Shown: positions 57,634-61,086 of the stretch, piece after piece | Layout of the letters: each line of letters starts with the position of its first letter | Position numbering within the stretch: position 1 is the stretch's first letter | Origin: Nitrospirota bacterium | GTDB taxonomy: Bacteria; Nitrospirota; Thermodesulfovibrionia; Thermodesulfovibrionales; JdFR-85 | Assembly (NCBI GenBank): GCA_035873375.1 | Contig: JAYWMQ010000006.1 | Span: 135,706-199,705 of the forward strand | Reading direction: 5' to 3' | DNA: 64,000 nt | The notes under the pieces: generated by a model | What the model saw: only the letters and a program-made list of their open reading frames with translations | The model's database searches: none | Told to the model about the DNA's origin: nothing | Program-made: the position numbers and the translations under genes

Positions 57634-57666
57634 ATACTTGACAGATATGGTTAAGTATTTTATAAT
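57634..57666 (+). promoter_or_regulatory. Consensus sigma70 promoter overlapped by an IscR type-1-like operator
   Basis: TTGACA 57638-57643, 17 nt, TATAAT 57661-57666. ATACTTGACAGATATGGTTAAGTAT (57634-57658) matches 22/25 of ATASYYGACTRwwwYAGTCRRSTAT. Confidence 0.85.
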
Positions 57667-57671
57667 TATTT

Positions 57672-58130
57672 ATGCTCAGGTTATCGACAAAGGGTCAGTA
57701 CGGCGTGAGGGCCATGTTTGAGATAGCGCGGGGGTATCCTGATGAACCCGTTAATATCAAGGTAATCTCGGAAAGGCAGGATGTCTCCCCTCATTACCTT
57801 GAGCAGATACTCAACAGGCTGCGACGTTCAGGCCTTATACGGAGTGTTAAAGGCCCCGGCGGCGGGTATCTCCTTACAAACAGACCTGAGGAGATAAGCA
57901 TCTCGGAGATACTGAGGGAACTTGAAGGCCCGGTTGCCATAACCTCGTGTCTCAATCCTGCGGAGGGGTGCGTGAGGGTTGATAGCTGTGTTACCCACCT
58001 CCTGTGGAAGGCGTTGGGAAGACAGATTGAGGAATTTTTAAACACCATAACCCTTGCTGACCTCCTGAGCGGTAAGTCATATGACGATTTTACGCTTATA
58101 GCCGGAAAGGGCAAGGGTGCAGTGGCATGA
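57672..58130 (+). CDS. iscR: Rrf2-family regulator, IscR-type
   Basis: SVKGPGGGY wing, and Cys-Cys-Cys-His ligands in SCLNPAEGCVRVDSCVTH. Confidence 0.88.
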   Translation: MLRLSTKGQYGVRAMFEIARGYPDEPVNIKVISERQDVSPHYLEQILNRLRRSGLIRSVKGPGGGYLLTNRPEEISISEILRELEGPVAITSCLNPAEGCVRVDSCVTHLLWKALGRQIEEFLNTITLADLLSGKSYDDFTLIAGKGKGAVA

Positions 58131-58387
58131 AAAAGGTCAGGTTTGTAGACCATATAACACCTGATGTAACCACTGATATAGTCTACATGATGTGTCCGAT
58201 GCACTTGCTCAAGCTTGATGAGATGATGGGAAAACTGAAGAGCGGGCAGATACTTGAGCTCCTCACTGACTATGACGGCGCCCTTGAAGACATACCCGAT
58301 TGGTGTGAAAATACGGGGAATGAATTTATTGGTGTTGATGAGACTGATGATTACTTCAAGTTTTATATCAGAAAAACGGGCTCATAA
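58127..58387 (+). CDS. tusA: TusA-family sulfur carrier (CPMH instead of CPxP)
   Basis: MMCPMHLLK...LELLTDYDGALEDIPDWC...FYIRK. Confidence 0.8.
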   Translation: MKKVRFVDHITPDVTTDIVYMMCPMHLLKLDEMMGKLKSGQILELLTDYDGALEDIPDWCENTGNEFIGVDETDDYFKFYIRKTGS

Positions 58388-58416
58388 CTAAATGGCCCTG
58401 ACAGAAGGAGACCATC

Positions 58417-59613
58417 ATGGAGTGTTATTTTGATCATGTAGCAACAACCCCCTTAAGACCAGAGGTGCTGGATGCAATGATGCCCTATTTCAGGGAGGAA
58501 TTTGGAAACCCGCTGAGCATTTACCCGCTTGGGACTAAAGCCAGAGAAGCGGTTGAAAATGCAAGGGAGCAGGTTGCAGGACTTATAAATGCCAAAAATA
58601 CCGAGATAATATTTACATCAAACGGCGCAGAGGCCAATAATTTTGCACTCAGGGGCATTGCCTTTGCCCGCCAGCATGAGGGCAAGCATATCATAGTCAC
58701 AAGGATGGAACACCACTCGATACTTAATTCCGCAAGGTTCCTTGAAAAGATGGGTTTTACGGCAACTTATCTGCCCCCTGATAAATACGGCCTGATAGAC
58801 CCCGAGGCTGTCAGAAAGGCAATCATTGATGAGACAATAGTAATCTCCGTAATACATGCCAGCCCAGAGGTCGGTACGATCGAACCAATAAGTGAAATAG
58901 CCTCCATTGCAAGGGAGAGAAACATTACTCTTCACACCGATGCCGTTGCCTCAATAGGCAACATCCCCGTTGATGTAAAGGAACTCGGCGTAGACCTCCT
59001 CAGCATGTCGGCCCATCAGTTCAATGGTCCTAAAGGTGCAGGGGCCCTGTATCTCAGGGAAGGCCAGAGGATTATACCCCTTATCTTCGGCGGCATCCAG
59101 GAAGGCGGACGAAGGGCGGGAACTGAAAACGTTCCGGCAATAGCTGGTATGGGCAGGGCTGCAGAGATTTCAAAGGCTGAGTTACCCATGAGGGTTGAAA
59201 ATATCAGGCAACTGAGGGACAGGCTCATCAAGGGCATCATGAAGCTTGAAGACGTCCATTTTACGGGCCATCCTGAAAGGAGGCTGCCCGGACATGCCAG
59301 TTTCTGTGTGGAGTATATAGAAGGGGAAGGAATGCTACTCATGCTTGCAGCAAAAGGGATATACGTTGCAAGCGGCTCGGCATGTACGTCAAAGGCTCTA
59401 AAATCCTCACCGGTGCTGCTCTCAATGGGAGTCCCTACACATGTAGCACATGGCTCTGTAGTCTTCACGCTCGGAGCAGACAATACGGAAGAACAGATTG
59501 AGTATGCCCTTGAGGAGTTTCCTCAGATAATCAAGAGACTACGAGAACTCTCACCCTTTTCCAAGGGGTGGGGAGAGATTGAGGAGGGTGGAACATGTAT
59601 TCCAAAGAAGTGA
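58417..59613 (+). CDS. iscS: IscS/NifS-family protein lacking the PLP-binding lysine
   Basis: Fold motifs ATTP, EHHS, HTDA, GTEN and SGSACTS are present. SAHQFNGPKG replaces SxHKxxGPKG. Confidence 0.9.
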   Translation: MECYFDHVATTPLRPEVLDAMMPYFREEFGNPLSIYPLGTKAREAVENAREQVAGLINAKNTEIIFTSNGAEANNFALRGIAFARQHEGKHIIVTRMEHHSILNSARFLEKMGFTATYLPPDKYGLIDPEAVRKAIIDETIVISVIHASPEVGTIEPISEIASIARERNITLHTDAVASIGNIPVDVKELGVDLLSMSAHQFNGPKGAGALYLREGQRIIPLIFGGIQEGGRRAGTENVPAIAGMGRAAEISKAELPMRVENIRQLRDRLIKGIMKLEDVHFTGHPERRLPGHASFCVEYIEGEGMLLMLAAKGIYVASGSACTSKALKSSPVLLSMGVPTHVAHGSVVFTLGADNTEEQIEYALEEFPQIIKRLRELSPFSKGWGEIEEGGTCIPKK

Positions 59614-59990
59614 TGGATCATTTCATGAATCCAAGAAATGTGGGCGAGATGCCTGATGCAGACGGAGTGGGCTCAGAGGGCAACCCTGTCTGCGGGGACA
59701 TGATGAAGCTCTTTATCAAGGTGAAAGACAACAGGATCGTGGAAGCAAAATTCCAGACATTTGGCTGCGGTGCCGCCATAGCAGTAAGCAGTATGATAAC
59801 GGAGATGATAAAGGGCAAGACCCTTGAGGAAGCCATGTCTATATCAAAGGAACAGGTTGCAAGTGCCCTCGGCGGATTACCCCCGCAGAAGATGCACTGC
59901 TCCAACCTCGGCGCTGATGCGCTGAGAAAGGCGATAGATGATTACAGACAGAAACAGGGAAAAGGCGAGGAAACCTCGCCACTACCTTAA
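59595..59990 (+). CDS. iscU: Fe-S scaffold IscU/NifU-N
   Basis: GNPVCGD, FGCGAAIA, KMHCS. Confidence 0.95.
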   Translation: MYSKEVMDHFMNPRNVGEMPDADGVGSEGNPVCGDMMKLFIKVKDNRIVEAKFQTFGCGAAIAVSSMITEMIKGKTLEEAMSISKEQVASALGGLPPQKMHCSNLGADALRKAIDDYRQKQGKGEETSPLP

Positions 59991-60015
59991 GAAGGCGGGG
60001 AAACCCCGCCACTAC
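59964..60015 (-). repeat. Two tandem GTAG-type REP-like palindromes (30-nt period)
   Basis: Minus strand GTAGT-GGCGAGG-TTT-CCTCGCC and GTAGT-GGCGGGG-TTT-CCCCGCC, related by a compensatory change. Confidence 0.8.
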
Positions 60016-60148
60016 CAATAACCTCGTCAGTGAATCAGAAATCATTATAGAAAGCCAGGCAAAGCAATTATTCTTTGCATGACCTGCTGTTTTTCTGTTA
60101 GAATATCCGTTAATTATCAATCGTCAATCGTAGATTGTCAATCAATAT

Positions 60149-60259: not shown

Positions 60260-60281
60260 GGCGAGGTAACCTCGCCACTAC
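60260..60281 (-). repeat. Third GTAG-type REP-like palindrome
   Basis: ggcgagg-taa-cctcgcc-actac. Confidence 0.8.
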
Positions 60282-60309
60282 AACAACCTGTTGAAAAAAA
60301 ACTGTATCA

Positions 60310-61086
60310 TTAACGGGTCAACGCATGACTGATTATGTTTGCAAGCCCTTCAAGAAGAAATATAAGTGACTCCACATCCAGAAACCTGTCCGCCGAGCTG
60401 TCAAAGAGTATTTTGCACGTTGAAGAACCCATAACATCAAGGTCATTATCCTCCTTCCAGTAAAGGATAAGTACCGGAATTTTCGGCAGTGCCTGAAGTC
60501 TCCACGCATGGTCTGCTGACTCGGAAGCCGTTTCTTCTGCACCAAGCCGGGACAGCATGGCTCCAGTCCGCACAATATCACGGTCCAGCAACTCTCTCAG
60601 GGGTTCCTCACAATCGCGGTGAAAGGATGACGCCTTTACCAGACCGGCTTTGAGCTCTGAAAACGAGACCCATCTGCCTGCAGGCTCACCCCTGCCGCCG
60701 GTCCTTATATAGTGCAGCAGGAGTATTTTTATCCAGGGATTTATGTATCCACGAGTGGTTATATCTCCACCCGGGCTGACCAGAAAATCCATTCCAAGGC
60801 AGCTTATCTTCATTGACCCGTCAACAAGTTCTGCACCTATCCCGCCGGCACAAAGGGGAAAATCAAGTCTGCTCACCTCTTCCCTGAGACTCGCTATCAG
60901 GCTTTCACGCCAGTCAGCCCCTTTTGCACCCCTTAACTCCTCTGCAACGGCAGCCTCAAGGTAAGGACAATTCTCTACATCCGTTCCGCCTTTAACTAAT
61001 GAGAGTGCAAAGGCCATGCAGGTCTTCTCAGGACATTGGCCGCAATTCTTTCCCGGCAGCTTTTTATATACATCAATAGTATTCAT
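60310..61086 (-). CDS. Fe-S domain plus DUF3786-like protein
   Basis: N-terminal LPGKNCGQCPEKTCMAFA...CPYL, then WVSFSELKAG...ALPKIPV...LFD. Confidence 0.8.
   Translation of the reverse strand: MNTIDVYKKLPGKNCGQCPEKTCMAFALSLVKGGTDVENCPYLEAAVAEELRGAKGADWRESLIASLREEVSRLDFPLCAGGIGAELVDGSMKISCLGMDFLVSPGGDITTRGYINPWIKILLLHYIRTGGRGEPAGRWVSFSELKAGLVKASSFHRDCEEPLRELLDRDIVRTGAMLSRLGAEETASESADHAWRLQALPKIPVLILYWKEDNDLDVMGSSTCKILFDSSADRFLDVESLIFLLEGLANIISHALTR

Follow-up and report, generated by a model that had tools for sequence, protein, structure and literature searches.

Why does a bacterium keep a homolog of the cysteine desulfurase IscS from which catalytic residues have been lost, and keep it between the genes for a sulfur carrier and an iron-sulfur (Fe-S) scaffold? 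And where do anaerobes obtain the sulfur of their Fe-S clusters if not from cysteine? An operon of a sulfite-reducing Nitrospirota bacterium suggests a sulfur route with a different starting point, one that can be tested. The operon occupies positions 57634–59990 of a 64,000-nucleotide stretch (the window; positions 135,706 to 199,705 of the forward strand of contig JAYWMQ010000006.1, GenBank assembly GCA_035873375.1). In the open reading frame listing it consists of four tightly packed genes on the plus strand, encoding an Rrf2-family regulator, TusA, a degenerate IscS and IscU. The reading that we favor, and hold to be somewhat probable, is that of an IscR-autoregulated Fe-S assembly module, in which sulfur would be relayed from the TusA carrier to a catalytically dead IscS and from there to IscU. 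The features of the operon, in window coordinates, are these:

57634–57658, no strand: IscR type-1-like palindromic operator ATACTTGACAGATATGGTTAAGTAT, 25 bp, its position kept in orthologs
57638–57666, plus strand: sigma-70 promoter TTGACA-17-TATAAT, a 12/12 match, both hexamers conserved in orthologs
57672–58130, plus strand: Rrf2-family IscR-like regulator, 152 amino acids (PF02082, 138 bits; ligands C93, C100, C106 and H109)
58127–58387, plus strand: TusA-family sulfur carrier, 86 amino acids (PF01206, 72.6 bits; Cys23 in CPMH, second cysteine Cys60)
58417–59613, plus strand: degenerate IscS/NifS homolog, 398 amino acids (PF00266, 266 bits)
59014–59019, plus strand: codons CAT-CAG for His200-Gln201, in place of the His-Lys of active enzymes
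59595–59990, plus strand: IscU scaffold, 131 amino acids (PF01592, 172 bits; TIGR03419, 203.5)

What exactly has been lost from this protein, and what is retained? Residue states were read from a HMMER alignment to solved desulfurases and from MAFFT alignments to relatives; residues such as K206 and R354 are numbered as in Escherichia coli IscS. The window protein has replaced K206 by Q201 (SAHQF), N155 by P150 (HASPE), Q183 by A178 (DAVAS) and R354 by V349 (SVVFT), and in its TSNGAE segment G74 has become N and T76 has become A (A71). In IscS, the positions N155, Q183, K206 and R354 are contacts to pyridoxal phosphate (PLP) or to the substrate. Retained are H104 (H99), D180 (D175), S203, H205, T243 (T236) and the loop cysteine Cys328, which is C323 here (SGSACTS). 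The original prediction, made from the window alone, had listed these substitutions, the CAT-CAG codons and the kept residues, and the alignments bear out every one of them. The protein belongs to the class V aminotransferase fold (PF00266, 266.1 bits against a threshold of 21.5, residues 4–363), an assignment fixed by matches to solved structures (E = 1e-136). It stays below the NCBIfam equivalog cut-offs for NifS (TIGR03402, 490.3 versus 530.75) and for IscS (TIGR02006, 385.2 versus 643.2).

With K206 gone, no internal aldimine with PLP should form, and with R354 and Q183 gone, cysteine should not be bound. Very probably, then, the protein is unable to desulfurate cysteine, because the catalytic residues are lost and because IscS2 of Archaeoglobus fulgidus, the precedent that the original prediction had correctly invoked, was measured to be devoid of desulfurase activity and ligates the cluster of IscU (PMC7585200, PMC8918507).

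Could the substitutions simply reflect sequencing or assembly error, or a decaying pseudogene? The original prediction had argued against error, and the comparison with relatives rules both out for all practical purposes. Among the 120 best homologs (70–97% identity), drawn from independent assemblies, the K206 site is Gln in 119 and Glu in one, never Lys, and the R354 site is Val throughout, which goes far past what chance would produce; the loop cysteine is likewise retained in each of them. The frame is intact, pairwise ratios of nonsynonymous to synonymous substitution (dN/dS) against orthologs are 0.03–0.07, and the Gln201 codon varies synonymously among orthologs (CAG or CAA; one ortholog has ATG, for Met). 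The gene is thus under strong purifying selection. The lineage-specific C-terminal tail (residues ~382–398, 59560–59613) combines GW(G/E), an acidic and Gly-rich run and C(Y/T/I)xx. Its cysteine, Cys394 in the window protein, precedes the C-terminus by 4–6 residues and is shared by nearly all of the Nitrospirota orthologs; members from Aminicenantes, Planctomycetota and A. fulgidus have no such tail. The cysteine may serve as a further relay or ligand position.

Nor is the protein confined to its source genome: a large family of degenerate IscS proteins, to which it belongs, extends over Nitrospirota, Aminicenantes, Planctomycetota, Dehalococcoidales, Desulfobacterales and archaea. A search of 1.84 billion proteins supplied the 150 cluster representatives that were aligned. 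Twenty-two of them are devoid of the lysine, with Q, T, R, S, I, G, L, D, A, M or P in its place, and nearly all of these also have lost Q183 and R354 (exceptions are, for example, P0169, P0199 and P0249). When the 32 members of the main degenerate clade are contrasted with 119 canonical sequences, the only strongly conserved canonical positions lost in the clade are N155, Q183, K206 and R354; the N155, Q183 and R354 positions are 97–100% conserved in the canonical relatives. No full-length member of the clade has lost the loop cysteine. The few newly conserved positions include Arg218 (E. coli 223; 94%, variable in canonical enzymes) and Lys329 on the cysteine loop. Three members (P0122, L107 and L114) keep K206 but have lost Q183 and R354, so that what marks the family is the loss of substrate binding, usually accompanied by that of the lysine; two of the three, L107 and L114, have an adjacent TusA gene. 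Proteins of this type carry the name 'cysteine desulfurase' in public records, which amounts to systematic misannotation.

How is the window protein related to A. fulgidus IscS2? The two align with 385 bits (phmmer, against 4EB5), and the archaeal protein carries Q183A, H205N, K206D, T243S and R354L, with T76 and N155 kept. In a FastTree and in a quick maximum-likelihood tree, A. fulgidus IscS2 falls into a smaller, separate degenerate clade. Imposing one degenerate clade on the tree, however, gives the higher likelihood (approximately unbiased test, p = 0.70), so that an independent loss of the catalytic residues in the A. fulgidus lineage, which the first two trees suggest, finds no firm support. 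On this basis we count the window protein in the same broad family as A. fulgidus IscS2; a single clade is not rejected, and we make no claim of convergence.

With which genes does the degenerate IscS travel? Orthologs at a minimum of 64% identity occur in 21 of the 31 genomes of the same order within a 150-genome sample of the phylum. In the following gene orders, IscS denotes the degenerate protein. Rrf2-TusA-IscS-IscU is kept in the Nitrospirota loci L011–L059 wherever the contig reaches far enough, with the regulator gene upstream of tusA, and more distant Nitrospirota families show Rrf2-IscS-IscU-TusA. IscS-IscU-TusA, with a long zinc-ribbon IscU, is found in Aminicenantes, in Planctomycetota and in metagenome-assembled genomes (MAGs) labeled as Clostridia. 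In Dehalococcoidales MAGs, IscS-IscU is followed by DsrE, with TusA present as well in one of three; Desulfobacterales have TusA-IscS-Rrf2-IscU, and an archaeal MAG has TusA-IscS. Divergent representatives add TusA-IscS, DsrE-IscS-IscU, TusA-DsrE-IscS-IscU, Rrf2-IscS-IscU-DsrE, IscS-DsrE-TusA and IscS-TusA. In A. fulgidus itself, the chromosome region of iscS2 has a DsrE-family gene directly upstream and IscU directly downstream. Our literature search found no paper on the AF0563/AF0564 neighborhood or on a link between DsrE or TusA and IscU; a description in a subscription journal is possible.

Taken over all loci, TusA or DsrE lies within 2.5 kb of 85 of the 91 degenerate genes and of none of the 10 canonical ones. 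The survey for co-occurrence with TusA that the original prediction had suggested thus yields a near-universal link. Four of the six degenerate loci without either partner end at contig ends. IscU is adjacent in 84 of the 91, and the CPMH/CPMP cysteine is kept in 73 of 74 linked TusA genes. The IscU of the Aminicenantes type (L061:5065-5730, L062–L075) is a longer protein of ~220 amino acids with a C-terminal zinc ribbon.

Among the partner proteins of the window operon, TusA matches PF01206 well above the cut-off (28.6) and has the conserved CP-motif cysteine; it scores below the equivalog cut-off for E. coli TusA (30 versus 78). IscU presents its ligands C33, D35, C58 and H101-C102 together with the LPPQK motif, has the NifU_N domain (PF01592) and passes the scaffold equivalog TIGR03419 (cut-off 187.9). 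The regulator has an Rrf2 domain with three Cys ligands and one His ligand, and a palindromic operator lies at the promoter of its gene. Its score against the NCBIfam equivalog for IscR (TIGR02010) is 140.1, below the cut-off of 207.55; by these matches, it is IscR-like and not an E. coli-type ortholog. The palindrome ATACTTGACAGATATGGTTAAGTAT, which we take to resemble the E. coli type 1 IscR consensus, overlaps the sigma-70 promoter of the operon. In each of the 44 orthologous Nitrospirota loci whose upstream sequence was long enough, the palindrome is present between −38 and −44 relative to the Rrf2 start (−38 or −39 in 40 of them). The original prediction had called IscR with its operator and IscU with all of its ligands normal in appearance.

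How might such a module work? Because the loop cysteine is kept, selection is strong and IscU is so regularly adjacent, we suggest that the degenerate IscS continues to work with IscU by way of this cysteine. The TusA or DsrE partner found across the family suggests that sulfur arrives as sulfane sulfur on the cysteine of a carrier and is handed via IscS to IscU. In the window operon, Cys23 of TusA would be loaded with sulfane sulfur by a canonical desulfurase (NifS or a second IscS-like enzyme) or by the sulfur metabolism of the cell. TusA would then dock on the degenerate IscS and transfer its sulfur to the loop cysteine Cys323, the reverse of the transfer from IscS to TusA in E. coli. From there sulfur would be delivered to IscU, and the nascent [2Fe-2S] cluster may receive its fourth ligand from the degenerate IscS, by analogy with the IscS-IscU structure of A. 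fulgidus (4EB5). In a wider and more tentative version, which we regard as possible but short of probable, degenerate IscS proteins would constitute an ancient, widespread transpersulfidase-adaptor family of anaerobic bacteria and archaea that moves sulfane sulfur from TusA or DsrE to IscU with no dedicated cysteine desulfurase step.

Several observations weigh against the relay. TusA and IscU are reported to compete for IscS in E. coli, which would complicate a ternary relay. Ten genomes of the same order, all from one genus, are without the module, so it is dispensable there. Two loci, L118 with full flanks and L106 with a short upstream flank, have neither TusA nor DsrE. About half of the 91 degenerate loci are Nitrospirota orthologs, and the number of independent lineages is ~12–15. 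Gene adjacency gives neither the direction nor the fact of sulfur transfer, and for this clade the support comes from sequence and gene context. H104, D180 and T243 are kept, and the A. fulgidus protein binds pyridoxamine phosphate (PMP), non-covalently (PMC8918507), so a cofactor-dependent role is possible; for the same reasons the term 'PLP-independent', which the original prediction had applied to the system, is not established.

Could the sulfur be free sulfide instead? If the A. fulgidus model held without modification, the degenerate IscS would be only a structural partner and ligand donor, sulfide would come from dissimilatory sulfite reduction, and TusA would be separate or merely regulatory. 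The genome encodes DsrA and, next to it, a probable DsrB found as a weaker second match; for A. fulgidus, sulfide was put forward as the source (PMC8918507), and in 4EB5 the loop cysteine does ligate the cluster (PMC7585200). Yet the module is also carried by an Aminicenantes chromosome and a Planctomycetota genome in which DsrA is absent, which weakens Dsr-derived sulfide as a general source, and the near-universal adjacency of TusA or DsrE, A. fulgidus included, would go unexplained. We therefore think this unlikely, without dismissing it. Sulfide, the TusA-like protein and another desulfurase had all been named in the original prediction as candidate sources; the comparative data favor the TusA/DsrE relay, and free sulfide is the less favored general answer. 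That the degenerate IscS is still an enzyme, using non-covalently held PLP or PMP, or some different cofactor, to act on something else than free cysteine, is a further alternative to which the retained D180, H104, S203, H205 and T243 lend some color, as does the PMP bound by A. fulgidus IscS2. But the Schiff-base lysine, the substrate-carboxylate residue Arg354 and the cofactor contacts Q183, N155 and T76 are all lost, the replacement of K206 varies across the clade, which would be unexpected for a new catalytic residue, and the D199K variant of the A. fulgidus protein was reported with PMP rather than PLP (PMC8918507). An enzymatic role of this kind is very improbable.

Slightly less improbable, though still a poor candidate, is a module that traffics sulfur for other ends, such as tRNA thiolation, the molybdenum cofactor (Moco) or one dedicated enzyme, with the IscU-like protein as sulfur acceptor. 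E. coli TusA indeed serves tRNA thiolation and Moco (PMC5372717), 7 of the 91 degenerate loci have no adjacent IscU, and a separate NifS-NifU pair could do the housekeeping. Against it stand an IscU above the scaffold equivalog cut-off with all cluster ligands, a regulator of the IscR-like type that has both cluster ligands and a conserved operator, and the absence of adjacent tRNA or Moco genes; nor was a SUF system found in the genome. We retain the relay from TusA through the degenerate IscS to IscU as the favored reading.

What else does the genome, which is 99.3% complete, offer for sulfur transfer? The search for a second, active desulfurase that the original prediction had called for returned two canonical ones: a fully canonical NifS beside a three-domain NifU, and a second IscS-like desulfurase gene. 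SerC is also present. The degenerate IscS is therefore not the sole desulfurase homolog, a possibility that these two copies rule out. SufB/D was not found at this completeness, which speaks against a SUF or SMS backup system. The genome contains seven TusA-family genes, the operon copy included. Further TusA loci are C41:883-1089 (L097), C3:24496-24708 (L094), C17:25723-25935 (L095) and C58:6130-6330 (L099), and the neighbors of the other TusA genes, judged by eye only, include a YeeE/YedE-type membrane protein and small DsrE-like, ThiF/MoeB-like and SelA-like proteins. This suggests an extensive TusA-based network for sulfur and selenium trafficking. Each of two related, complete Nitrospirota chromosomes encodes only a single canonical desulfurase domain, located within an open frame of ~1130 amino acids. 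These domains lie at G153:C1:853962-855041 and G154:C1:1527147-1528223; the frame length is like that of P0215 (~1130 amino acids), in which Pfam identifies a molybdopterin oxidoreductase (Fe4S4, Molybdopterin and Molydop_binding) fused to a canonical class V desulfurase.

The layout of the operon is compact throughout. The 3′ end of the −10 box lies 5 nt upstream of the Rrf2 ATG (57661–57674), there is no Shine-Dalgarno sequence, and the spacing is kept in the 44 orthologous loci; the regulator mRNA is probably leaderless, because so little room is left between the −10 box and the start codon. The TusA start overlaps the Rrf2 stop (ATGA), and IscU starts within the last 19 nt of the IscS gene. 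None of hscB, hscA, fdx and iscA is found in the operon downstream of iscU; the rest of the genome was not searched for hscBA. The next gene after iscU, on the opposite strand, encodes a DUF3786/FeS-domain protein. This convergent gene (60310–61086, minus strand) has an N-terminal 'putative Fe-S cluster' domain (PF04060) as well as DUF3786. A 23-nt hairpin unit, GGCGRGGAAACCYCGCCACTACC, occurs three times in this region (59964–59986, 59994–60016 and 60260–60282; 0 expected by chance). Its first copy lies inside the last iscU codons and appears to encode the C-terminal ~9 residues of IscU, and two copies score as terminator-like on the minus strand. The unit may be a small element resembling repetitive extragenic palindromes (REP-like).

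What does the operon add to what is known? A lysine-less IscS had been described in A. fulgidus and noted for IscS1 of Methanosarcina acetivorans. New with respect to the accessible literature are the large bacterial membership, the IscR-type control, the near-obligate TusA or DsrE partner, which extends to A. fulgidus, and the tail cysteine. The design with an inactive IscS is no peculiarity of archaea, being present in a strongly selected, IscR-regulated bacterial operon, with TusA or DsrE as the family-wide partner. A vague proposal of 'perhaps sulfide' thereby becomes an in vitro question about three proteins. If the wider, family-level version of the relay is true, it would add a distinct mode of sulfur entry to ISC, NIF, SUF, MIS and SMS.

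How, finally, does the module compare with systems already characterized? The closest solved structures by sequence are those of the PDB 9WEP series, entitled 'cysteine desulfurase' (406 amino acids, E = 1e-136), for which our literature search found no paper. They share with the degenerate IscS an SPF..W motif at the C-terminus; unlike it, the presumed wild-type chain in 9WEP has K206, N155, Q183 and R354. The entries 9WER, 9WEW, 9WF8, 9WFB, 9WFE and 9WFY appear to be variants at positions of the PLP pocket, including K to L, R to V and VQ to AP, and several of these changes affect the same positions as in the natural degenerate family. The MIS system also has a core of an IscS-like and an IscU-like protein (MisS-MisU) without chaperones or carriers, in anaerobes and archaea, but MisS is described as a cysteine desulfurase, and the MIS review mentions neither lysine-less bacterial members nor a TusA or DsrE partner (PMC13066941). 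IscS1 of M. acetivorans (MA0808), paired with IscU1 (MA0807), was reported to be without the catalytic lysine and the PLP-binding residues, and is uncharacterized because it was insoluble (PMC7585200). IscU1, at 24 kDa (PMC7585200), resembles in size the long zinc-ribbon IscU of the Aminicenantes type, unlike the 131-residue IscU of the window.

With the IscS-TusA-IscU system of E. coli (PDB 3LVJ and 3LVL, which are sequence matches), the operon shares all three protein families and an IscR-type regulator. In E. coli, sulfur passes to TusA from IscS, a PLP enzyme, and tusA, unlinked to isc, serves tRNA and Moco. Here, by contrast, IscS has very probably lost its desulfurase chemistry, the operon includes tusA, and hscBA, fdx and iscA are not part of it; because of the first two differences we propose that sulfur would flow from TusA to IscS.

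A further close parallel is the IscS2-IscU pair of A. fulgidus (PDB 4HVK, 4EB5 and 4R5F). Both systems have a type I desulfurase homolog without K206, Q183 and R354 in which the loop cysteine is kept, an IscU gene directly downstream and a gene for a small sulfur-relay protein directly upstream, DsrE there and TusA here. They differ in the residues replaced: in A. fulgidus the lysine has become D, H205 has become N and T243 has become S, T76 and N155 are kept, and PMP is bound, whereas in the bacterial protein of the window the lysine has become Q, H205 and T243 are kept, and T76 and N155 are lost. The window locus differs further in its IscR-like regulator with an operator, in its use of TusA rather than DsrE, and in a C-terminal tail with a conserved cysteine. 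For the A. fulgidus pair, the sulfur source in the IscS2-IscU structure was stated as unknown (PMC8918507); a relay of sulfane sulfur from a DsrE or TusA partner, if true, would provide the missing explanation for its sulfur supply.

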